A DNA stretch of 64,000 nt from a bacterium (GCA_022840695.1 JALHDC010000002.1:25753-89752), one strand, 5' to 3'. Counted from the stretch's first letter, positions 3,407 to 16,921 are shown. The notes: generated by a model not told the origin, from the sequence alone. Numbers and translations are program-made.

Positions 3407-3484
3407 GGTGGATGTAGCTCAACTGGTTAGAGCATCGGTTTGTGGAACCGAGGGTTGTGGGTTCAAATCCCATCTTCCACCCCA
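3407..3484 (+). tRNA. tRNA-His (anticodon GTG) with encoded G-1 and 3' CCA
   Basis: cloverleaf folded by eye: extra G-1 pairing with discriminator C73 (His-specific), acceptor GTGGATG/CTTCCAC, anticodon stem TCGGT/ACCGA, loop TTGTGGA, T-arm GTGGG-TTCAAAT-CCCAT, CCA at 3482-3484. Confidence 0.9.
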
Positions 3485-3485
3485 T
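3472..3485. repeat. attL-like direct repeat (3' end of tRNA-His), ATCTTCCACCCCAT
   Basis: identical 14-mer recurs at 14365-14378; flanking similarity TCAAATC / TGAAATC. Confidence 0.7.
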
Positions 3486-3574
3486 GTAGAGAAACAATCT
3501 CTTTGTATTGGCAGCCTTTATTGATACTAAATCCAAGCTTGAGGTATGGTTCAAGTAGTTCGATAACTTTGTTT

Positions 3575-3793
3575 TTATTTCGTTGTAATCCCCTCATCGT
3601 TATCCTCCTTATATGATCCTGTATCGTCTTCAAATTGATATGGTTGATCATCTTCTGGATATTCAGTTTCCATTGCATTATCATCTTCTAGAAGGTCTGT
3701 AAGAGCCTCTAGAGACTGTTCATCCCCTTCATCGAATGTAGAAGTTTCTTCTGTATCTATTTCATCTTGTGTTGTCTGATCATCGTCATCCAT
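3575..3793 (-). CDS. very acidic small protein (about 45% Asp/Glu), last gene of the RM operon
   Basis: 72-aa ORF, 15 nt downstream of hsdS on the same strand; composition DDDD...EDD; no homology recognisable. Confidence 0.35.
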   Translation of the reverse strand: MDDDDQTTQDEIDTEETSTFDEGDEQSLEALTDLLEDDNAMETEYPEDDQPYQFEDDTGSYKEDNDEGITTK

Positions 3794-3807
3794 ATTTGAT
3801 TATATCG

Positions 3808-5025
3808 CTATATTAGCTTACCTTCAAAGGCTTTTTTAAGGATTGATTGACGGAGTGACTTTATAAAAGCTTTTTGCTCTTGAATCCTACGAATTGATTC
3901 GTCAGAGTATGTCTTTAACTTCTCAAGCTTCTTGGAAATCGCTTTTTGACGGCTTATGTCTTGAGGATAAATAAATGGCAGATTCTCTGTTTTTGATTTA
4001 TTTAATATTGGCAGTGTTGTACTAGAACTCTCAGTAGTGATTAATGAGCGTATTTTTCTGAGATAGAAATAAAGATATTTCATATCGAACTTTGGATTAG
4101 GAATAAAAGAATTGATTTGTTGGTTTGTTGTAAGCTCTACTTCTGCAATCCCGACTTTTCCAATCGTTGCACCTATGCAACATAAGAGTACTGTATCTTC
4201 AGGTAATAGTCTTACAACCCCAGTTTCGATTGCATATTTATCAATATATTTATTAGCCTTTGTGATTACGATTTCTGAGTCAGGTAAATCGCTTGGTCCG
4301 ACAAAAGGTATGTCCTGATTTGTATAGTAAAGTTTCTCCTTTGTTTGGGGTGTTTTTCCCGTGTATACTTGGAAAATATCTCCTAGTGATTTAATTTCCC
4401 AGCGATCATCTTCCTCAGGTAAGGTATGAGGGATAAGCCTCTCTAATGCACTATCCATTACCTTGTTTAATTTATCTTCAGCTTGTTTAAGCTTTGCTTC
4501 TGATTTATCTAATAATGTAAAGCATTCTTTTATTTTTGATAAGATTTCAGACTGTGTTTCTAAATCGGGCAAATTTATAGGAATTTCTCTTATGACTTTC
4601 ATCGGTTTTAAATTCTGCATTGCCGTGCCTGAAGTTTGTAGAAGATATCTCTTTTGGACATATTCTGATTCTAAGTAAAGCTTTAAAAACTCTGAGTACA
4701 CTTTTTCACTTGGTCGGATTCTTAGTAATGCTTGGTTTATAATGCCACTTTTTACACCTTTAGGAGCAATTGATAACTTTCCGATGGTTCCTGAACAACT
4801 CATGATTATGTCATTTGGTATTACTTCGAATGCCTTCATCTCTTGAAACTTCTCGCTATTTATATAATAGGAACCAAGTCTGAAATCATCGTAAATAGCA
4901 TTTTTTTGCTCATACACTTTATAACCATCTGGTACGAAAATGCTCTTCTTTAATGCTCCACCAAAAGGGCCTCTCTTTAGGTCTGCTACTTCATTTAGCT
5001 TGATTGTTTTAAAATTCTTTTTCAT
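3808..5025 (-). CDS. hsdS: type I restriction-modification specificity subunit
   Basis: 405 aa, two-TRD architecture with central and C-terminal conserved coiled-coil spacers, located after hsdM/hsdR. Confidence 0.8.
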   Translation of the reverse strand: MKKNFKTIKLNEVADLKRGPFGGALKKSIFVPDGYKVYEQKNAIYDDFRLGSYYINSEKFQEMKAFEVIPNDIIMSCSGTIGKLSIAPKGVKSGIINQALLRIRPSEKVYSEFLKLYLESEYVQKRYLLQTSGTAMQNLKPMKVIREIPINLPDLETQSEILSKIKECFTLLDKSEAKLKQAEDKLNKVMDSALERLIPHTLPEEDDRWEIKSLGDIFQVYTGKTPQTKEKLYYTNQDIPFVGPSDLPDSEIVITKANKYIDKYAIETGVVRLLPEDTVLLCCIGATIGKVGIAEVELTTNQQINSFIPNPKFDMKYLYFYLRKIRSLITTESSSTTLPILNKSKTENLPFIYPQDISRQKAISKKLEKLKTYSDESIRRIQEQKAFIKSLRQSILKKAFEGKLI

Positions 5026-5034
5026 TGCTATTTA

Positions 5035-5802
5035 TTAAAATGGTAATTCGTTTTCATTACTCACTGATTGAGGCTCTTCAATATTAAACTTTTTGTTGTA
5101 GTAGCTAATTAAAAATATTCCCACCGTAGCAACAGAATTAATGATAAATGAAGCATACAGAGGATTGTCTATAATTCTGTCTTCGGTTAATTTACCATGT
5201 GATCTAGTCTTTTCACTTCGGAGTTGTTCTATTGCTCTTGAAACAGCTAATAAGCTACTGCCTATTGTTTTCACCTCAGTAGGCATTTCTTTTTCTGGAT
5301 ATAATTGAAATTGTTTAAGAATATCAATAGCCTGTTCGTATAAAGTCTTTGTCTTATCAAAGTTTTCAAATTTACTATCCTTTAATATATGTTTTACGAT
5401 GCTTTCTAGTGCAGAATTAGCTAGTGAAATTGCATTATCTGGATGTTCGTAACATTGATTCAGTGCCTGTTTGAATGTTTCTCCAGCTGTTTGGTAGTTT
5501 ACCTTGAAAATATTATATATTTCAGATACCGCAGGTATAAAGTCTGGTGTATTAACTCCTATGTCTGCTGCGATTTGTAAAACGGTCTCATCGTCAATAT
5601 GTGTTAATGTCTGTGTCAAATCTATCTCGTTTGTATCTCCTTTGGTAATTATTACAAAATTCTGATTATTCCAATCATACTCTTCTATCCATTGCTCCAT
5701 GTATTGTCGTACACGCTTATACGTTTTGTATTCGTTCCATATAGCATTTTCAATCTCGAGTAATAACTGCATTTTGAATTTTGGAGAGATCTTATCTATC
5801 AT
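5035..5802 (-). CDS. hypothetical protein inserted between hsdM and hsdS; candidate HEPN/Abi-like defence protein
   Basis: 255 aa, start overlaps hsdM stop by 4 nt; C-terminal R-x6-H (RSEKTRSH) motif compatible with HEPN Rx4-6H; assignment tentative. Confidence 0.5.
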   Translation of the reverse strand: MIDKISPKFKMQLLLEIENAIWNEYKTYKRVRQYMEQWIEEYDWNNQNFVIITKGDTNEIDLTQTLTHIDDETVLQIAADIGVNTPDFIPAVSEIYNIFKVNYQTAGETFKQALNQCYEHPDNAISLANSALESIVKHILKDSKFENFDKTKTLYEQAIDILKQFQLYPEKEMPTEVKTIGSSLLAVSRAIEQLRSEKTRSHGKLTEDRIIDNPLYASFIINSVATVGIFLISYYNKKFNIEEPQSVSNENELPF

Positions 5803-7166
5803 AATTCTTTCTGTAATTTTTCCAAGTTATCTAATACCTCTTTAATATCCTTTATACTCTCTTGTATAAGTACTTCCGGTTCTGGAAGATCATCTAAGTT
5901 TCCTAAGCTCTTATCTTTTATCCAAGTGATATCTAAGTTGAAGTTTCTTTTTTGTATATCTTCATATGTAAATTTCTTCCATCTTTCTGTCTCTTCATTT
6001 CTATTCTGGTGTGCATCTTCAAATTCTTTGAAATAGTTTTTTGTTAATCCTTTTGTTTTGGTGATCTTTTCTACATTAGTTCTCATATCGTAGATCCATA
6101 CTTCTTCTGTTCTCTTACCTGTTTTTTCAAAGAAAAGAACGTTTGTTTTCACTCCTGCAGCATATGGTGTAAATACTCCATCTGGAAGTCTTAGGATAGT
6201 ATGTAGGTTGTTATTCTCTAATAATATCTTTCTAATCTTTTGACCATCGTTATCTTCAAAAAGTACATTGTCGGGCATAACCATTGCACATCTTCCTCCG
6301 ATCTTTAGAATACTCATACAGTGTTGTAGGAAGTTTAACTGCTTGTTACTTGTCTGTACTGTAAAGTCGTCTCTGGTGTATTTAGAGCCTCCAGATTTCG
6401 TTCCAAATGGAGGATTGGTTACTATTACGTCGTATGATCCATATCGTTCTTCTAGAGCGTCTCCAAAGCGTATATTGGCCTCTATATCGTGTAGGTAGAG
6501 GTTCATTATGCATAGTCTTCTTGTATCCCAAACAATCTCACCTCCTGATATTGCTTTCTTTTGTAGAAACTCTTGTTCTTCAATACTTAATGCTTTGTTT
6601 TCTTTTTCTAATTTACTAAATATGTGCTCAAATGCTCCAATTAAGAAGCCTCCTGTACCACAAGCAGGATCGTGTATTGTTTCGTTATGTTTTGGATCTA
6701 CACATTTAACTATTGATTTAATTAATTCTCTTGGTGTGAAGTATTGTCCTGCTCCTTTTTGATCAGCTGCAAATTTAGCTAGAAGGCCTTCATATGCTGT
6801 TCCTTTTACATCTATATCAAGTGTCCCCCAGTCGTTTTCGTTTATTAGAAGTATCAGCTTTGAGAGGTTTACTGGATTTCTGAATTTGTTGTTAGATTGG
6901 GAAAATATATCTCCTAATACGTCTTCTTGTTTCCCAAGTTCTCTAAGCATTTCAGAATAGTGTTCTAGAAGATCTGTACCACTATGTTCTAGCAGTGTAT
7001 TCCATTTATATTTTTCTGGTACATATGCTCCTCTTTCATCTGCCATTTTCAAAAAGAGTAGGTATGTCAACTGTTCAATGTAGTCTCCATAGTGCATACC
7101 GTCTGCTTTGAGTACGTTACAGTATCCCCAAAGTTTATTTACTATGTCTGATTCTTGTTGTGTCAT
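5799..7166 (-). CDS. hsdM: type I RM DNA methyltransferase subunit (N6-adenine)
   Basis: NPPFG catalytic motif (VIVTNPPFGTK), AdoMet-binding region, HsdM N-terminal domain. Confidence 0.9.
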   Translation of the reverse strand: MTQQESDIVNKLWGYCNVLKADGMHYGDYIEQLTYLLFLKMADERGAYVPEKYKWNTLLEHSGTDLLEHYSEMLRELGKQEDVLGDIFSQSNNKFRNPVNLSKLILLINENDWGTLDIDVKGTAYEGLLAKFAADQKGAGQYFTPRELIKSIVKCVDPKHNETIHDPACGTGGFLIGAFEHIFSKLEKENKALSIEEQEFLQKKAISGGEIVWDTRRLCIMNLYLHDIEANIRFGDALEERYGSYDVIVTNPPFGTKSGGSKYTRDDFTVQTSNKQLNFLQHCMSILKIGGRCAMVMPDNVLFEDNDGQKIRKILLENNNLHTILRLPDGVFTPYAAGVKTNVLFFEKTGKRTEEVWIYDMRTNVEKITKTKGLTKNYFKEFEDAHQNRNEETERWKKFTYEDIQKRNFNLDITWIKDKSLGNLDDLPEPEVLIQESIKDIKEVLDNLEKLQKEL

Positions 7167-7167
7167 A

Positions 7168-8718
7168 TTATTCTTGTCCTAAAATTATCTTTTCTAACTC
7201 TTGATAAACCTTCATTTCTGGAGTAATTACTTCTGCCAATTTTTGTTTGTATGTCTTTAGGTCAATACTTTTCAAAGTAGGTGTAACAGTGTTTCTAAAT
7301 GTTATACTTAGATCCTTCAGCTCGTCATTGATTATATCTTTAACCAACTTATCATATTCTTCCTTACTCGCGTTATTATCAAGCTTTGAAACCACCTCCC
7401 AGTCATACAAATAGTTCTCAAGCTCTCTTCGTTTGAGCATTCTTCTTTTGGTCGGATTCACTTTAAGCCATTCATCTCTATTCTCATTGTCTCGATCTTT
7501 TAAAACAAAAATTTTTAGTGAATCAAATGCTTTTGCTAATACCTTTAATGCTATCTCAGAATATCCGTCTGGTTCTGTATTTCCTCCGCTTGATACAAAT
7601 AATATCTCTGGCTTCGTTATCTCAAATATCTTGTTATAACAAATAGCGTCTATTCCTCGTTCATCGTCTGTATCATTGCGACCTTCGCAATAGTAAATCT
7701 GCTCAGGAGCTAGGAGGCCAGTTAAGTCCTCCAATGTTATCTTGAACAACTTTTTCCAATTTGCTGGTGTCGTCTTCATAGGGGTTAGTATTTGTTCAAC
7801 ATCGAAATCCTTATCAAAATCTAGCACAATGCTTTTGTCTTTTAGTTCCTTTTGTAGTGCTTGTAAAAAGCCTATGCTATGTGTTGCTATCCACAACTGG
7901 CAATTGTTAGGTACAAGTTTTTCGATCTCTATTAATAAGTTTCTTTGTATAGAAGGATTTATGTGTAGCTCAGGTTCGTCAATGCAAAAGATTGTATCGT
8001 TATAAGCATCTTTTTTGATAATCAAGTCAAGAACAATGTCTAAAACTTCTTTTTCTCCCGAGGAGAGATCTTCATAAGGTATATTTCGTGCTGATCCTTT
8101 ATGAAAGAATAATTGTCCTCTTTTTTCTATGACATTTCCTAAATCTGCCACTGATATATCTCCAAGAATATTTCTTAGTGATTGGTTAATTTGTCCAAGT
8201 AAATCGTTCATAATTTCTTGCCCAGTTTTTGTTCTTGTTACAAATACATCTTTCCAAGCTTTTCCTTGAAGTCTTTCATAGTTCTCTGTTAATCTGGAAT
8301 CTATCTGAGTCATACTTCCTGGTCTGTTTGTATCATTTAACAAGTCTTGCTCTTGTGCTCGTATCTGAGTGATATTTAGAGAAGGAGTATAACGATATGG
8401 AGTCCTAATGTAAAAACTCTTATTATTCAAGGCTGCTGAGTCCTCTCTTTCCACGTTAATGTTGGAATTTCTCGAGTATGAAGCTCCGCTCGGCTCTGAA
8501 CTTGTTACATATAAAGATTTAGACAGATATGTCACTTGAGGATTATAACTAGAGCCCTTATGATTCTTGTTTAACTCTTCAAAGGCGTCAAATACTGAAC
8601 TTTTCCCCGATCCATTGGGGCCAACAAGTGCTACTATTTTAGGTGAGTATCCATCTAAATCAATCTCAAGATTAGTGAAGCGTTTAAAATCTTTCAGAAT
8701 GACCTTCTTAATTCTCAT
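7168..8718 (-). CDS. ABC/SMC-like ATPase fused to C-terminal Toprim-like domain (OLD-family / PARIS AriA-AriB-like or Gabija GajA-like defence nuclease)
   Basis: Walker A GPNGSGKSS, signature-like LSSGEKEVL, Walker B FCIDEPELH, H-loop ATHS; C-terminal YYCEGRNDTD ... VLKDRDNEN resembling Toprim E/DxD motifs; embedded between hsdR and hsdM with overlapping ends. Confidence 0.6.
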   Translation of the reverse strand: MRIKKVILKDFKRFTNLEIDLDGYSPKIVALVGPNGSGKSSVFDAFEELNKNHKGSSYNPQVTYLSKSLYVTSSEPSGASYSRNSNINVEREDSAALNNKSFYIRTPYRYTPSLNITQIRAQEQDLLNDTNRPGSMTQIDSRLTENYERLQGKAWKDVFVTRTKTGQEIMNDLLGQINQSLRNILGDISVADLGNVIEKRGQLFFHKGSARNIPYEDLSSGEKEVLDIVLDLIIKKDAYNDTIFCIDEPELHINPSIQRNLLIEIEKLVPNNCQLWIATHSIGFLQALQKELKDKSIVLDFDKDFDVEQILTPMKTTPANWKKLFKITLEDLTGLLAPEQIYYCEGRNDTDDERGIDAICYNKIFEITKPEILFVSSGGNTEPDGYSEIALKVLAKAFDSLKIFVLKDRDNENRDEWLKVNPTKRRMLKRRELENYLYDWEVVSKLDNNASKEEYDKLVKDIINDELKDLSITFRNTVTPTLKSIDLKTYKQKLAEVITPEMKVYQELEKIILGQE

Positions 8719-11428
8719 TTGGATACCCTCCTTGTAATACTCGCTGATTTACATCTGCAATAACATACTGTAATTCTCCATTAAAATCGGTATTAGCTTT
8801 GTTATACCCACCTTTTCTTTTGAAGGTAAGGAGGTTGTTGAAGTCTTCTTTTTCTACAACAACATTCCTAGTGAGATGATTCTTTACAAGGTTTAACCAT
8901 TGCAATTGTTGTTGAGTGTATTCATCTAATTTCATAGTACTGAAAGCATTATCTACTCTTTCTTGTGGAGATATCAACTCACCACCATATACAGCATATG
9001 ACACAAAAGAGTAGAGGTCTGCATCTGTTTCTTCTTCTATGATCTGTTCTGCGGCTTCTTGTAATCTTCTTTCTGTAAACATTTCAGGAGTATTCTTCAA
9101 TTGCTCTTTTAGTTCGTTAAAAGCTTTTCTAGTGAAGTCTTTTGGATTCTCTAGAAGTATCCTTAATGCTTGTATAGTATGCTTGTTATCGTTTATGTAT
9201 GTTTTAAACGATTCCATGTAGTCTTCAGGTTTTAGATCTCTTCCATCTGTAGTTTTGAAAAGGTACTCAGAAGTTACAATCTTTGCTTGCCTCTCTCTGG
9301 AAACGATTAACCCATCTCTATATCTTGGGTATCTTTTAACAAATGTTATCCAGTTTGCATCTCCCCATCTTTCTAATTCCTGTTCGTTCTTGCTTGATAA
9401 TCTGTCTTGTACTGAGTCTGCAAGTTTTAGTAATCCATCTTTTTCAATTCCGAACCTATCTTCAAGTTCTTGTCTTCCCTCTTCTGTAATGTTTTTATCC
9501 ATTCGTCTTAGCTTGTTTGCTAGAATCTTCGCGTTCTTATCAATATTCGTTTCATTTTCTAATTCTTCTACCACCTCCTCTATGGATTTGGTGTTTGAAG
9601 GGGCTGTAGGCTCCATTACGCCTCCTTCTTTCTGCATAAACTCTATTACCCCCACTGCGTCAAATACTGTGAAATGGGTCTTTCCTATTTCGTTACAAAG
9701 TCTTGTTCCCCTTCCTATAATCTGCTCATAAAGTATTCTTGATCTAATAGGGCGAATTAGTACTAAGTTTTCAACTTGGGGAATATCAACACCAGTTGAA
9801 AGCATATCTACTGAAACAACAATACTTGGCTTCTTTTCGTTTCTAAAATGTCTTATCCAACTATTCGCTTTATCGATTCTGTATGTGATCTTTTGAATCT
9901 CATCTGGATATTTTATCTCTTCTTGTAATAGTTTTACTAATTGATCTGCGTGATCTTCGTTTACTGCGTAGAATATGGTCTTAGGTATTCTTTCGCCCTC
10001 TTTTTTAATGTAGGAGAGCACTTCTTGTACAATTTTTCTGTTTCTATCTTCAACTGTAACTTTTCTTTCTAATGAAGCCGTTTGAATGTTCAATTCATCT
10101 TCTAGGAAGGTACTAAATCTGTATGTACCACCTCTGTCTCTAACTTCTACCGCTTCTCCCTTTTGAAGTTCAATCTCTTTTGCCATATCTATGTCAGTTT
10201 GTATCCTTACAGCGTCAAAGTCTACTAAGTATCCTTCGTGTACTGCTTTTTCGTATGGGTAGTAGTAGATGTCTTTTTCGGTATGACAATCAAAATATGC
10301 TGCAGTATGAGCGGCTGGTGTTGCCGTTAATCCAATTTGATAACTATCGAAATAGTCGAGAACGTATTTCCACTTGTTGTAAATTGATCGATGGCATTCA
10401 TCTGAAATGATTAAGTCGAAGCTATCAATTGGGAAATCTGGATTATATTTGATTTCTGAATCCCCTAACTCTTCCCAGTTCTCATCTTCAATGTCTGTAT
10501 AACTTACTTTTTTTCCTGTTAATGTTGCATATAGTCCCTGTATCGTTGACACATAGACAAATGAGTTTACATTCTGTCGATTCTTCAAATTCTTGAGTTG
10601 TAATTGTTCTGCTCCTAGATCTTTTGGATCTTCGTCTCCTTTAAACAATCTATCAAAATATACTGGATATACAGTGTTAAATTTCTGGCCTGTTACTGGC
10701 TCAAACGTTGAGAATGCTGAGATTGCCTGAGAAGCAAGTGATCTTCTATCAACTAGAAACAGGATTCTTTTGAAATATCCTGTTCTCATTAAGTGATAGA
10801 TCAATGCTGAAGCCATAAAGGTTTTGCCTGTACCTGTTGCCATAGCTACGAGTCCTTTTCTTTTGCCTTCAAGTATTCGTTTAACTGCATACTCGACTGC
10901 TTCCTTTTGGTATTTTCTTAATCCCTTTTGTCCGTACTTCTCTATAACTTGTTCTGTTTCAAGTTCTCTTAGTGCCTCGTTTTTTGAATCTGAGAGCAAT
11001 TCGTTTAATGCTTCTGGTGTATGAAATCCTTTTACTCGTCTTGGTATCGAATTATTGATATGCAATTCTTGGAATGTTATTTCATTTCCGTCTGTACTGT
11101 ATATGAATGGTACTTTGTATTCTCCGTAGAGCTTTGGAAGGTCGATATCTTGGGCGTATCTCTTAGCTTGTGCAATGACTCCTTCTGTTGAGGTGTTATC
11201 CTTCTTGGCTTCTACAATCGCAATTGCTTTGCCATTAAAAGTTAATAAGTAGTCAGCTGGTCCTGAGACTGTTCCAAATTCTACTATTGCGTCTTTACTG
11301 CTATTAGTGAGGTCTTCTTTTGTTCGAGTGACTTTCCATCCAGCGTCTTTTAGAAGTTTATCAATACTATCTTTTCTAGTATTCTTTTCACTTTTGTAAG
11401 TCTTCGTAAATCTGAATGGTAGTTCCAT
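8708..11428 (-). CDS. hsdR: type I restriction enzyme R subunit (endonuclease/helicase)
   Basis: N-terminal PD-(D/E)xK nuclease (IVEAKKD), SF2 helicase motifs MATGTGKT and DECHR, 906 aa. Confidence 0.9.
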   Translation of the reverse strand: MELPFRFTKTYKSEKNTRKDSIDKLLKDAGWKVTRTKEDLTNSSKDAIVEFGTVSGPADYLLTFNGKAIAIVEAKKDNTSTEGVIAQAKRYAQDIDLPKLYGEYKVPFIYSTDGNEITFQELHINNSIPRRVKGFHTPEALNELLSDSKNEALRELETEQVIEKYGQKGLRKYQKEAVEYAVKRILEGKRKGLVAMATGTGKTFMASALIYHLMRTGYFKRILFLVDRRSLASQAISAFSTFEPVTGQKFNTVYPVYFDRLFKGDEDPKDLGAEQLQLKNLKNRQNVNSFVYVSTIQGLYATLTGKKVSYTDIEDENWEELGDSEIKYNPDFPIDSFDLIISDECHRSIYNKWKYVLDYFDSYQIGLTATPAAHTAAYFDCHTEKDIYYYPYEKAVHEGYLVDFDAVRIQTDIDMAKEIELQKGEAVEVRDRGGTYRFSTFLEDELNIQTASLERKVTVEDRNRKIVQEVLSYIKKEGERIPKTIFYAVNEDHADQLVKLLQEEIKYPDEIQKITYRIDKANSWIRHFRNEKKPSIVVSVDMLSTGVDIPQVENLVLIRPIRSRILYEQIIGRGTRLCNEIGKTHFTVFDAVGVIEFMQKEGGVMEPTAPSNTKSIEEVVEELENETNIDKNAKILANKLRRMDKNITEEGRQELEDRFGIEKDGLLKLADSVQDRLSSKNEQELERWGDANWITFVKRYPRYRDGLIVSRERQAKIVTSEYLFKTTDGRDLKPEDYMESFKTYINDNKHTIQALRILLENPKDFTRKAFNELKEQLKNTPEMFTERRLQEAAEQIIEEETDADLYSFVSYAVYGGELISPQERVDNAFSTMKLDEYTQQQLQWLNLVKNHLTRNVVVEKEDFNNLLTFKRKGGYNKANTDFNGELQYVIADVNQRVLQGGYPNEN

Positions 11429-11449
11429 AATGTCTTATTATATCGCAGA

Positions 11450-13747
11450 TTATTGTGTCTGAATAGCCATTTCTGATAGCTTTTGCTCTATTCTGTTCCA
11501 GTCTAAAATTAAATCTAAACTCTGATTCCACCAGTCACTAAATGGCAATTGTGAATCAGTCTTTTTTATTTCACTATATTGTCCAACTCGAAGTGTATCA
11601 GTCGATGGAATATTGTATGTACCTGATTCAGTAATCAACCATCTGTCGTGCAAGGAATTCTTTAATTCTGAATCTAAAATGACACGCATTTCTGCGTTTA
11701 TACCTCTGTAGTTGAGCTCTTCTTTTAAGGTTTTGAACTTTTCTCGAATCTTATGGTCTACTTTATTTATCGAAGTTATAATTTTTACAGAGGAGATTTT
11801 TGAATCTGAGCTTTCTGATATGCTTTCGGATATTAAATCCAAGCCTACGACTGAAAAGTATTTGTCTACCCATTTGATTTCGCCATATTGAGCTTTGATT
11901 ATATCCTTGAGATGTTTTGTATTCGTGTATGGACTTTGTGGTGTTATTAGGATCGTTTCCTTTTGAGCTCCTTCAAAAATGCTTCTTAATTCATTAATGA
12001 TTGTCTTCTTTCTCTCTTGAATGAAGTCATTAAAGTCTTCAGATCCGAAATTTTCTCTCGTCAGTATTTCAATAGCCTTTCTAGAAAGAAGATGTGTTTG
12101 CATTAGATCGTAGAATTGCTCGTCATTTCCGATATTTCTCTTTATCTCGTTGAGGTAATCGCTTGGAAGTCTGTCGCTAATCTTCTTGTTTGTATCATTT
12201 GAAATAGGAGCTTTGTTTAATATCGTATTTATGTCTTTTATTCCGTTTTTCTTACCCCAAGATGCTGGAACAATGTGGTGATCTTCTAATACTGAATACT
12301 CTGGTAGATTGTTTGTATAGAAATCTCTTGCTTCGTTTCTAGCAAACAAACTGAATATTGCATTATATATAGCAGTATTCTGCCTATTCTCTCTAACCAA
12401 ATCTAGATTCTCAATAGTATTAACGGCTCTTTGAACCACATTTGGTGTTATTGAATCGTCTTCTATCCATTTTTTGAGGTCTAAGTAGTCTTTTGTCATT
12501 GTTGATTCAACACTGCTCGAATAACTGTTGGATAGTACAGAAGCCCAATACCATTGTGTAATCTTCTTATCAAAAGCTTGCTGTTTTGTTGAATCGAGTG
12601 ACTCTTTTTCTTTCAGTAGAACAGCGAGAATTGGGGTCATAGTTGGATATGGAATAAACTTTGGTTGAAGTGATCCAAAATCCCTAGGATTCTCGATTTT
12701 TGCTAAAGCCTTTTGAGTATATTGTAAGGCCTCACCCCAGTATTGTGTGAATTCTTCCGGGCTTGTCATAATAACACGTTTCTCTTTTGAACCATCTTCT
12801 TTTCTAATTGTTCTTTGCGTATTAGGCACCAAGTAGTAAAGGTATCTAGGTGAGCAATATCCTTGTAGTCTGATCGACATATACTGAAGAAGGTATATGT
12901 TCATCTTTTCTAATTCCTTGTGGTTATAATTTTCAGAAGCAATTCTCCAGTTTTTCTTAAGCTCAATAGCGTGAGGCTTCAATAACGCGTTGAGAAGATC
13001 GAAGATCGTAAGTTTCAACCCAGATGAGTTGATTTTTGTAAATATATCGCACACCTTTGCGACATCGATGTCCTTTGAAAGCTCTATGTAGCTAATATCG
13101 TAACTATTAAGTAATGATTGGAAGAACTTCTCTAGCTTCTGAACTTTCTCTTCTTTTTCGGTATACCCTTGTTTCTCTAACCAATTTCCATACTGTACAA
13201 CCCACTTATACCATTCAAAGCCTTGACCAAGAAGATAAAGTGGGAATAGTCCTTCTTCGAATTGCTTTTCTAATGGTCCTACAAATTCTTCAGCAGTTCT
13301 TTGTCTTGAAGTATTGTCATTTCTGTACTCAATTGATTCGTCCCAATCGTCTTCTAAAATACTGTTTAGTTTAACAAAGAAATAGAAACGAGTTTTTCTT
13401 TTTGGAAATGGCTCTGTAGGTGGGAAAAATGCATAATGTAGAGCACTAAGTCTCTGTTGTCCGTCTAAAACAATGTGTTGGGCTGTATATTTTAGTTTCT
13501 CTTTATTGATCTTGTTAAATCCGTATATAGACTCACAATTCAGTTTATCGAAGTTTTCTGGGGTTGATCTCCAGAGAAGTAGTGTACCAATGTAATAATC
13601 TGCGAATATTGATTGCAACAATGCTTGTATATCCCAAGGTCCCCATTCAAATTCTCTTTGAAAGTCTGGAATTACATAGAATCCAGAATCTATTGCAGTT
13701 AGTATTTTGCTAAGATTGTCTTTTGACGGAGTCTCTAGGTCTCGCAT
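11450..13747 (-). CDS. DUF262 (ParB-like NTPase) / DUF1524 (His-Me finger) protein, GmrSD/BrxU-like type IV restriction enzyme, with extra C-terminal domain
   Basis: N-terminal FQREFEW and DGQQR motifs; EDHHIVP...N His-Me finger motif; 765 aa with about 200-aa uncharacterised C-terminal extension; first gene of the operon. Confidence 0.75.
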   Translation of the reverse strand: MRDLETPSKDNLSKILTAIDSGFYVIPDFQREFEWGPWDIQALLQSIFADYYIGTLLLWRSTPENFDKLNCESIYGFNKINKEKLKYTAQHIVLDGQQRLSALHYAFFPPTEPFPKRKTRFYFFVKLNSILEDDWDESIEYRNDNTSRQRTAEEFVGPLEKQFEEGLFPLYLLGQGFEWYKWVVQYGNWLEKQGYTEKEEKVQKLEKFFQSLLNSYDISYIELSKDIDVAKVCDIFTKINSSGLKLTIFDLLNALLKPHAIELKKNWRIASENYNHKELEKMNIYLLQYMSIRLQGYCSPRYLYYLVPNTQRTIRKEDGSKEKRVIMTSPEEFTQYWGEALQYTQKALAKIENPRDFGSLQPKFIPYPTMTPILAVLLKEKESLDSTKQQAFDKKITQWYWASVLSNSYSSSVESTMTKDYLDLKKWIEDDSITPNVVQRAVNTIENLDLVRENRQNTAIYNAIFSLFARNEARDFYTNNLPEYSVLEDHHIVPASWGKKNGIKDINTILNKAPISNDTNKKISDRLPSDYLNEIKRNIGNDEQFYDLMQTHLLSRKAIEILTRENFGSEDFNDFIQERKKTIINELRSIFEGAQKETILITPQSPYTNTKHLKDIIKAQYGEIKWVDKYFSVVGLDLISESISESSDSKISSVKIITSINKVDHKIREKFKTLKEELNYRGINAEMRVILDSELKNSLHDRWLITESGTYNIPSTDTLRVGQYSEIKKTDSQLPFSDWWNQSLDLILDWNRIEQKLSEMAIQTQ

Positions 13748-14364: not shown

Positions 14365-14378
14365 ATCTTCCACCCCAT
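14365..14378. repeat. attR-like direct repeat ATCTTCCACCCCAT
   Basis: identical to 3472-3485 (tRNA-His 3' end). Confidence 0.7.
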
Positions 14379-16153: not shown

Positions 16154-16921
16154 CTACGGTCTCAATGTTCCTCCAAATACCTGCCATGCTAACAATGTCT
16201 TAGCTACAAGACTTAATACAATATATGCTTTTTCTCCATATAGATAATCCTTCCACTTCCCAACCTTCTTGTATTGTAAAAACATATTAATTGCAAAACT
16301 ATTAAAGAATAGGAATATACTTACATATATCCAATACACAAAATTAGGGATATCACCTCCACCAACCTCTGTTATGGAATAAACATATATACCAAACACT
16401 ACCCAAGGAACAATACCAGCTATACAACCTAATACAAAGGTTAACCAATTAACCTTCTCCTTCCCAGTATTATGTACCTCCATAGCCAAACCAGTTAAAT
16501 TCATTAATGCATCTAATGCAAAAATCATAACCAAACTAGCTAAATCATATATACCTGTTAAAAAACTAATTGCTAACATCATTACACTTGCACTAAAAGC
16601 ATACTCAAACCATCTAACTCTATTTATACCAACCTTTAGATCCTCCTCATACTTCCTTCTATACACAGTTGATATGAATAGGTGAGCAAAAGCACTCATA
16701 AAGAAGAATGTAGCAACAAACCATGCTATATTAACCTCTGTAATCTGCTCTGTCATAGGAAGAAGCTTCTGTAACTCCAAATCATATTTTAAATAGTTTA
16801 CCGTTATTGGAACAATTCCTTTTTCTGGATCACTAAGAAGAAGGACAACAATACCCTGAACAAGGTGAAAGAGTCCCATTACAAGATTGAAGATTCTTAA
16901 ATTCTTTAATTTCTTCTCCAT
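16154..16921 (-). CDS. heliorhodopsin (retinal-binding 7TM protein with inverted topology)
   Basis: strong similarity along the full length to heliorhodopsin 48C12-type sequences: FHLVQGIVVLLLS, RWFEYAFSASVMMLAI, GCIAGIVPW, SIFLFFNSFA, YIVLSLVAKTLLAWQVFGGT (Schiff-base Lys conserved). Confidence 0.85.
   Translation of the reverse strand: MEKKLKNLRIFNLVMGLFHLVQGIVVLLLSDPEKGIVPITVNYLKYDLELQKLLPMTEQITEVNIAWFVATFFFMSAFAHLFISTVYRRKYEEDLKVGINRVRWFEYAFSASVMMLAISFLTGIYDLASLVMIFALDALMNLTGLAMEVHNTGKEKVNWLTFVLGCIAGIVPWVVFGIYVYSITEVGGGDIPNFVYWIYVSIFLFFNSFAINMFLQYKKVGKWKDYLYGEKAYIVLSLVAKTLLAWQVFGGTLRP

Follow-up and report, generated by a model that had tools for sequence, protein, structure and literature searches.

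When genes from several families of antiviral defence are nested inside a restriction-modification (RM) operon, are they parts of one integrated machine, or are they cargo that the operon carries and can exchange? The question is raised by a locus in a 64,000-nucleotide (nt) stretch of bacterial DNA (GCA_022840695.1 JALHDC010000002.1:25753-89752; hereafter the window, meaning this whole stretch), in which seven minus-strand genes occupy positions 3575-13747. The operon is built on a type I RM system whose two internal gaps each hold a further gene: one for a 516-amino-acid (aa) ATPase-Toprim protein between hsdR and hsdM (slot 1), and one for a 255-aa Abi_C protein of the HEPN type between hsdM and hsdS (slot 2). 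A GmrSD-like type IV enzyme stands at the head of the operon and a very acidic 72-aa protein at its end. An earlier note on this DNA, made from the sequence alone, had taken the seven genes for an unusual and possibly undescribed composite. We propose here that the type I operon is probably a platform for independent and exchangeable defence genes, situated on an island that has lost its recombinase, and that the genes it carries would together provide layered immunity.

Exchange of embedded genes on a nearly constant type I backbone

Sister islands keep the hsdR/hsdM/hsdS backbone at 92-98% identity, while the embedded genes are exchanged at exact gene boundaries (Table 1). Slot 1 is occupied by the ATPase-Toprim gene, by a gene for a Schlafen/AlbA2-HATPase protein, or by one for a DUF8370/8371 protein; slot 2 contains Abi_C, DUF3800 or a 209-aa protein, or is empty. 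The GmrSD-like gene is likewise optional, being absent from L088 and L179-182, where a 183-aa gene replaces it together with orf104, a small divergent gene within the island. Cargoes of the sister islands match the PADLOC candidates PDC-M04A and PDC-M36A.

Table 1. Gene content of the island in the window and of its sister islands; percentages are identities to the window, at the protein level unless DNA is stated.
Island	Upstream of hsdR	HsdR	Slot 1 (hsdR/hsdM)	HsdM	Slot 2 (hsdM/hsdS)
Window	GmrSD-like gene and orf104	reference	ATPase-Toprim	reference	Abi_C
L083	orf104 98%, GmrSD-like 84%	98%	ATPase-Toprim 61%	92%, fused to half an HsdS	none
L088, L179-182	183-aa gene on the opposite strand, no GmrSD-like gene	94%	ATPase-Toprim 90%	96%	DUF3800 (2e-16); 209-aa protein in L180
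L172-174	GmrSD-like gene present in L174 (contig begins inside it)	903 aa in L174, about 88% (DNA); L172 and L173 begin within hsdR	492-aa SLFN_AlbA_2/HATPase_c_4 protein	455 aa, about 88% (DNA, with Abi_C)	Abi_C 83%
L168-169		partial, contigs begin within hsdR; about 92% (DNA)	475-aa DUF8370/8371 protein	455 aa, about 91% (DNA, with Abi_C)	Abi_C 93%

The boundaries of exchange can be placed at the level of single nucleotides. In blastn comparisons, homology between the window and L172/L174 ends at 8705 and restarts at 7169, which is exactly the extent of the ATPase open reading frame (ORF; 8718-7168), and homology to L088/L180 covers 11449-5798, ending at the Abi_C start. When the junctions of all cargo types are aligned, similarity ends right after the hsdR 3' sequence GTATTACAAGGAGG and restarts about 5 nt before the hsdM ATG, the 5' end of hsdM being ATGACACAACAAGAATCAGA. 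The terminal hsdR sequence GTATTACAAGGAGG encodes VLQGG, and the AAGGAGG within it doubles as a Shine-Dalgarno sequence for the cargo. Because each embedded gene is swapped independently and precisely while the RM backbone stays 92-98% identical, the embedded genes appear to be independent cargo rather than obligate parts of one composite machine. The integrated composite of the earlier note does not survive this comparison, and the conserved synteny of the embedded genes on which that note had staked its proposal beforehand is largely absent from the homologous loci.

Predicted functions of the encoded proteins

The backbone proteins have the domains and motifs of a type I enzyme. HsdR matches ResIII (2e-37), EcoEI_R_C (2.2e-34), HSDR_N and Helicase_C in Pfam, and its NCBIfam matches to PRK11448 (7e-169) and restrict_EcoAI (3.5e-94) are strong, yet both lie under the equivalog cut-offs. 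Its sequence contains the nuclease motif D..EAK as well as ATGTGKT and DECH, and it has the N-terminal PD-(D/E)xK nuclease, superfamily 2 helicase motor and family-specific C-terminal domain expected for an EcoAI/EcoEI-like type I enzyme. HsdM is matched by N6_Mtase (Pfam, 1.3e-73) and MTase_I (PADLOC, 3.7e-175) and carries the motifs NPPF and DPACGTGGF, and HsdS is matched by Methylase_S (1.1e-36) in two stretches, corresponding to two target-recognition domains (TRDs). The region from 4547 to 3505, comprising the second half of hsdS and the acidic gene, is 95% identical to L172/L174, while the first TRD is unrelated, which indicates that hsdS has probably undergone TRD shuffling. Taken together, hsdR, hsdM and hsdS appear to form an intact EcoAI/EcoEI-like type I RM operon, for which both methylation and restriction activity are predicted.

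The 516-aa protein of slot 1 begins with an ABC ATPase domain, recognized by Pfam AAA_21 (4.3e-23) and AAA_15 (1.2e-19), with Walker A, signature, Walker B and H-loop motifs. An AlphaFold 2 (AF2) model (pLDDT 87.9) shows an ABC ATPase fold followed by a C-terminal domain of β-α-β-α-β-α-β topology, in which E345 after strand 1 and a DxD motif (D408, D410) after strand 3 are invariant among homologues, as in the Toprim pattern. The best PADLOC match of the whole protein is the fused PARIS profile AriAB (4.7e-34), and this is also the only PADLOC profile that the C-terminal 249 aa match on their own (4.8e-9; E<=0.01). The HEC-04 profile matches neither over these 249 aa at the same threshold nor among the best 25 full-length PADLOC matches. 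Pfam DUF4435 is not detected in the 516-aa protein, Pfam finds nothing significant in the isolated C-terminus, and a PDB sequence search with a profile of the C-terminal domain gives nothing even at E<=10. Two of 70 homologues do give a DUF4435 match, the better one at 8.8e-4, and when the C-domain profile is run against the ORFs of 78 other ATPase loci, its sole match is a DUF4435 protein adjoining an ATPase. Class 1 nucleases of the OLD family, to which the 516-aa protein may belong, are single polypeptides in which an N-terminal ABC ATPase is followed by an OLD-type Toprim.

Relatives of this ATPase-Toprim protein are numerous and widely distributed. A word-indexed search returns more than 4,000 matches at 46-53% identity, from Patescibacteria, Thermotogota, Pseudomonadota and Acidobacteriota, and an exhaustive search yields 285 representative clusters at E<=1e-30, almost all of 510-560 aa; in the plasmid collection searched there is a single distant homologue, 32% identical, in Zymomonas. 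A scan of metagenome contigs with the full-length ATPase alignment gave mostly generic Walker A matches, the true relatives among the matches listed being L003 and L004, and genomic context was surveyed in 80 metagenome loci fetched with the C-domain profile, which reduce to 50 non-redundant clusters, 37 of them with informative flanks. Seven of these 37 lie in type I RM loci, two beside an HsdR-like gene and three beside type III-like RM genes, and the rest stand elsewhere, so that about one third of the sampled loci are RM-linked.

Individual loci of the family add some detail. In Aquella oligotrophica (CP024847.1; L087:9001-16539) the ATPase-Toprim gene lies 2 nt upstream of a type III mod gene, which is followed by a RhuM/Fic gene and res, and there are genes for a TIR/SEFIR protein and an SNF2 helicase upstream. 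At another locus the partner is a Schlafen/AlbA2 protein. A 14-member cluster from the human gut (L139:4352-11753) has the order hsdM, a 167-aa gene, hsdS, a gene for an AbiJ_NTD4 protein, the ATPase-Toprim gene (50% identical) and hsdR, on an unrelated type I backbone; the AbiJ_NTD4 protein (6099-6911) corresponds to PADLOC PDC-S32, and both kinds of cargo thus recur there side by side. Within the island family itself, the ATPase-Toprim proteins of L083 (9001-10548) and of the window (7168-8718) differ most at residues 41-80, 121-200 and 441-516, and the divergent L083 protein points to possible allele replacement or to diversifying selection on a sensor surface.

The 255-aa protein of slot 2 belongs to the Abi_C family (Pfam, 2.2e-9; 37.7 bits against a cut-off of 24) and is matched by AbiJ in PADLOC (1.4e-7). 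Residues R195 and H202 of its Rx6H motif are invariant in 65 homologues, and the top folds found with its AF2 model (pLDDT 79.8) are the HEPN toxin 7ae8, AbiV and Csm6, although these matches are weak (E 0.4-1.2). Residues 1-150 have no Pfam match to any AbiJ_NTD, of which NTD1-5 are described. The Abi_C family has at least 600 members annotated as 'abortive infection family protein', and one homologue stands alone amid housekeeping genes. When the ORFs of the sampled ATPase-Toprim loci were searched by phmmer with the 255-aa protein, no homologue turned up beyond its own genome. At the level of sequence family the two kinds of cargo are therefore not partners as a rule, and the sampled loci contain only one other protein of the same broad kind, the AbiJ_NTD4 protein of the gut cluster. 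The objection that the embedded proteins might be degraded fragments is not borne out and can be rejected, as both are full length relative to large families.

The 765-aa protein at the head of the operon had been described as a DUF262/DUF1524 enzyme. The first of these assignments holds, as Pfam GmrSD_N/DUF262 (3.4e-30) matches its N-terminal domain, while Pfam DUF1524 does not match even at E<=10, and that part is visible only as a His-Me-type motif (EDHHIVP...N...N) resembling the DHIYP motif of BrxU. PADLOC assigns the protein to HEC-05 (1.3e-28), the BrxU structure 7p9k matches its N-terminus at 1.9e-9, the sequence 'LDGQQRLSAL' contains the DGQQR motif, and the middle region matches PADLOC PDC-M55C (1.7e-4); Pfam searches with the isolated middle and C-terminal regions return nothing significant. 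We regard it as a BrxU/GmrSD-like protein and a predicted modification-dependent nuclease. BrxU ends near residue 594 of this protein, and the approximately 170 C-terminal residues beyond that point (window 11450-11965) show a weak MIT_C/PLD-like match (E 0.0047) and a 'HDRWLI' motif; this extra region may be an additional sensor or nuclease domain.

Island boundaries and operon layout

The seven ORFs are co-directional, intact and full length, and they lie at the coordinates that the earlier note had given, with gaps and overlaps exact in every case (Table 2). From 13,747 down to 3575, successive ORFs are separated by 21 nt, overlap by 11 nt, are separated by 1 nt, overlap by 4 nt, and are then separated by 9 nt and by 14 nt. 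Identical gene calls are obtained on independent assemblies of the same population (the metagenome-assembled genome GCA_022839185.1 and Logan SRR18493545/547), and catalytic motifs, as read from the sequence, are intact in every enzyme of the operon. Since six of the seven ORFs have strong family matches (Pfam, PADLOC, NCBIfam) and the same calls recur on independent assemblies, they are real genes and not chance ORFs. The identities first assigned from the sequence are also upheld in essence, namely a type IV GmrSD-like enzyme, the type I R, M and S subunits, a PARIS/OLD-type ATPase-Toprim protein, a HEPN protein and an acidic mini-protein, and with them the presence of two non-RM defence genes inside a type I operon. 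Three terminator-like sites were found within the seven-gene block, against 5.3 expected from shuffles, none of them above chance, and in a combined promoter and terminator scan the counts were at or below the shuffle expectation. It is a reasonable inference, from the tight junctions and the lack of excess internal terminator-like sites, that the seven genes share one transcript.

Table 2. Features of the island, in window coordinates.
Feature	Position	Strand	Basis or remarks
BrxU/GmrSD-like type IV nuclease (predicted), 765 aa	11450..13747	-	DUF262 domain at the N-terminus, putative His-Me finger, about 170 aa of extra domain at the C-terminus
HsdR, type I restriction subunit, 906 aa, EcoAI/EcoEI-like (family IB-like)	8708..11428	-	Pfam, NCBIfam, motifs
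Embedded cargo 1: ABC ATPase with divergent DUF4435/Toprim-like domain, PARIS AriAB-like, 516 aa	7168..8718	-	
HsdM, type I N6-adenine methyltransferase, 455 aa	5799..7166	-	Pfam, PADLOC, motifs
Embedded cargo 2: Abi_C/AbiJ-family HEPN protein, predicted RNase, 255 aa	5035..5802	-	Pfam, PADLOC, Rx6H
HsdS, specificity subunit with two target-recognition domains, 405 aa	3808..5025	-	Methylase_S
Very acidic protein of the island backbone, 72 aa	3575..3793	-	composition, position
orf104, basic protein, divergent from the operon, within the island, 104 aa	13887..14201	+	ORF
tRNA-His (GTG), integration target	3408..3484	+	ARAGORN
Distal 14-bp direct repeat ATCTTCCACCCCAT, att-like island end	14365..14378		exact copy of the tRNA-His 3' end

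The operon lies within a defined insertion. The last 13 bases of tRNA-His and one more (ATCTTCCACCCCAT, 3472-3485) recur exactly at 14365-14378, where the chance expectation of such a match is 0.24 even with 2 mismatches allowed; judged from its sequence, the segment 3485-14378 is a 10.9-kb island at the 3' end of tRNA-His, holding the seven genes and orf104. The islands of L083, L084 and L088 likewise abut tRNA-His, and the 14-bp repeat is found at both ends of the L083 island and at the distal end of that in L088. In L083, L084, L172 and L173, a 106-aa helix-turn-helix (HTH)-like gene and a 547-552-aa serine recombinase gene lie between the acidic gene and the tRNA. No integrase or recombinase gene was found in the window, which relative to L083 and L172 has a clean deletion of about 1.8 kb comprising the recombinase and the 106-aa gene, so that homology to L083 jumps from 3505 to the tRNA. 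A repeat search inside the island revealed chance-level repeats only. Just outside the island, beside the histidyl-tRNA synthetase gene, there is a heliorhodopsin gene (16154-16921, minus strand; Pfam 1.2e-94). The low GC content (about 33%) and relatives from anaerobic-digester metagenomes suggest a small-genome uncultured host.

Two small genes of the island match no known family. The 72-aa protein, with 30 D/E and 2 K/R residues and an isoelectric point of about 4, has no match in Pfam, PADLOC or NCBIfam and only 8 homologues among 5.8 billion sequences; every homologue whose context was looked up follows hsdS in this island family, just before the HTH and recombinase genes. Its gene is often frame-truncated to 47 aa in relatives (e.g., L179:10001-10144), and its L083 counterpart lies at 12569-12787. 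The protein is possibly a DNA mimic. The orf104 product has no Pfam match and is 98% identical in L083, where it has the same position; it is possibly a regulator of the operon. A 73-aa ORF at 3463-3684 (minus strand), which overlaps the opposite-strand tRNA-His and the end of the acidic gene, was rejected as almost certainly spurious.

Alternative explanations and known relatives

According to the explanation that we favour, the exchangeable positions of the platform would be three, namely the optional GmrSD-like gene upstream of hsdR, slot 1 and slot 2. The type I enzyme would methylate self DNA and cut unmodified foreign DNA, the GmrSD-like enzyme would cut hypermodified phage DNA that evades the type I enzyme, and the two embedded proteins, ATPase-Toprim and HEPN, would serve as autonomous abortive-infection modules, each sensing a phage cue and responding with cleavage of a nucleic acid, tRNA or some other. 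In the case of the ATPase the cue would plausibly be a phage protein, whether anti-restriction or not, by analogy with PARIS. That a single co-regulated unit would thus confer immunity in layers is inferred from the established behaviour of these families. A PARIS-like guardian role of the ATPase-Toprim protein in this locus is plausible, and so is the use of the embedded genes as backup effectors when RM is inhibited.

Several points weigh against this explanation. Recurrent tight coupling of the ATPase-Toprim family to type I and type III RM genes could reflect a functional link and not full autonomy. The Toprim assignment is a prediction that draws on motifs, on the topology of the model, on a single PADLOC profile and on weak links to DUF4435, and no Toprim structure appeared in the fold-search lists, which the ATPase domain dominated. 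In the same fold search the ATPase domain was structurally nearer to PtuA of Septu than to AriA, so that AriA is not its closest structural relative; the PARIS-like trigger and the tRNA target are therefore extrapolations. Moreover, the explanation gives no role to the acidic protein, to orf104 or to the additional C-terminal region of the GmrSD-like enzyme.

A bolder proposal takes three statements jointly: the RM operon is an integron-like cassette platform, the ATPase-Toprim protein is a dedicated RM guardian, and the acidic 72-aa protein is a DNA mimic. The platform would have two fixed slots, bounded by the Shine-Dalgarno sequence in the hsdR 3' end and by the start codons of hsdM and hsdS, and genes would be exchanged in them as exact ORFs without loss of translational coupling. 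The ATPase-Toprim protein, whose compact family recurs in different phyla within RM operons of types I and III, could read the state of the restriction enzyme, and the acidic protein could modulate either the operon's restriction enzyme or the ATPase sensor. We consider the three together improbable.

An obligate composite, in which the seven genes are integrated and co-evolved and the two embedded proteins are guardians of the PrrC kind, kept inactive by the type I enzyme and set free once an anti-restriction protein blocks it, would account for the overlapping or near-abutting junctions and for the cargo Shine-Dalgarno sequence built into the hsdR 3' end. It could also draw on the recurrence of the ATPase-Toprim gene beside RM genes in unrelated lineages (type I in L090, L108, L139 and L151; type III in L087), on the human-gut family of type I loci with an AbiJ-type protein and an ATPase-Toprim protein side by side, and on the precedents of PrrC/EcoprrI and PARIS. 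However, unrelated genes replace each embedded gene independently on a backbone still 92-98% identical, RM genes are absent from the surroundings of approximately two thirds of the ATPase-Toprim loci sampled and of some Abi_C genes, and the L083 ATPase, 61% identical between an HsdR at 98% and an HsdM at 92%, fits a swappable module better than a co-evolving partner. Since cargo genes are freely replaced while the backbone hardly changes, an obligate co-evolved composite is quite unlikely, and the two explanations that remain are less likely still.

The embedded genes might be selfish, acting as addiction-type toxins or regulatory accessories that secure the inheritance of themselves and of the island. 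HEPN and Toprim nuclease domains are typical of toxins, Payne et al. have discussed linked horizontal transfer as a selfish gain from embedding, and the island, whose relatives have a recombinase, is a mobile element. Nevertheless, no antitoxin-like partner gene adjoins either cargo gene, the related families PARIS, HEC-04, AbiJ and BrxU have demonstrated anti-phage activity, and the alternative cargoes of the same slots (Schlafen/AlbA2, DUF3800 = PDC-M04A, and PDC-M36A) are all of the defence type; this view is very unlikely. Least credible of all is a decaying remnant, an immobilized island whose genes no longer function, as suggested by the deletion of the recombinase and adjacent 106-aa gene relative to L083 and L172 and by the cutting of the acidic gene to 47 aa in many relatives, since none of the seven ORFs is shortened, their catalytic motifs are intact, they are identical on independent assemblies, and an island that has lost its recombinase is immobilized without its cargo being disabled.

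The arrangement to which the exchangeable platform belongs has been documented before, and in this respect the supposed novelty of the locus has to be given up. Payne et al. 2024 (bioRxiv 10.1101/2024.01.29.577857) described defence genes situated in type I RM, BREX, DISARM and Hma operons ('guilt-by-embedding'), and validated an ATPase-TOPRIM fusion embedded in Hma (HEC-04), GmrSD-like proteins (HEC-05/06, HEC-05 being BrxU) and a HEPN protein (HEC-08). They found GmrSD-like genes to be frequently embedded in type I RM and 96.7% of embedded genes to be oriented like the host system, and they suggested that a PARIS or Gabija system, if embedded, could be set off once the host system is blocked by Ocr. 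Anantharaman et al. 2013 linked at least 16 HEPN clades to R-M operons, AbiJ solos included. TgvAB, a GmrSD-family system in the type I RM locus of Vibrio cholerae VPI-2, is an experimental precedent, and so is an island of enteropathogenic Escherichia coli (EPEC; NAR 2025, PMC12255303) that has seven ORFs with DarTG2 between hsdS and hsdR, is regulated by RptR, and has been proposed to contain a recombination hotspot at that site. In PARIS, AriA is an ABC ATPase and AriB a DUF4435 Toprim protein, a fused AriAB form is known, and sensing of Ocr releases the Toprim tRNase (Rousset 2022; Burman 2024; Deep 2024).

Comparison with these systems defines what the present locus shares and where it departs. 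Like the embedded systems of Payne et al., it has same-strand defence genes nested between hsd genes; ABC-ATPase-TOPRIM fusions, GmrSD-like enzymes and HEPN proteins are among the published classes, and the rationale of backup and complementarity was stated there. Unlike them, it has both slots occupied and a type IV enzyme alongside, and its ATPase-Toprim protein is not HEC-04. With PARIS it shares an AAA_15/AAA_21-type ABC ATPase, which is joined to a domain with conserved E and DxD that is putatively a DUF4435-like Toprim. PrrC/EcoprrI and the Campylobacter Rlo genes are similar in being nuclease-type abortive-infection genes in a type I operon that are proposed to act when restriction is blocked. 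PrrC and RloC, however, are anticodon nucleases formed as single ABC-ATPase-HEPN fusions in type IC loci, whereas here the ATPase is fused to a Toprim-like domain, HEPN is on a separate Abi_C protein in the other slot, and the backbone is EcoAI/EcoEI-like; neither the ATPase-Toprim nor the HEPN protein matches the PrrC or RloC models of PADLOC and NCBIfam. TgvAB, and BrxU in BREX, likewise couple a GmrSD-family enzyme to a modification-blocked system, thereby covering modified and unmodified phages, but in this locus a single GmrSD-like protein with an extra C-terminal domain of about 170 aa is encoded upstream of hsdR, not between hsd genes, and is optional. The EPEC island is also a single-strand type I RM island of seven ORFs with embedded cargo, but differs in the cargo (DarTG2), in the slot (hsdS/hsdR) and in having a defined repressor, RptR, no RptR-like gene having been recognized in this locus.

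Thus, the locus is a clear example of a published arrangement and no new kind of immune system. What is new is this particular combination of genes, the mapping of two cargo slots to the nucleotide on an island of the tRNA-His/serine-recombinase kind, and a compact AriAB-like family, often linked to RM and defined here by its 285 representative clusters. The island family is a natural experiment on the packaging of defence genes, in which one backbone is combined with at least three slot 1 genes and four slot 2 states, and its cassette swaps support the view of embedded genes as autonomous, co-regulated cargo. Its natural variants are matched constructs in which synergy with a type I enzyme, or backup of it, can be compared among modules of the PARIS-like, HEPN, Schlafen, DUF3800 and DUF8370 kinds.

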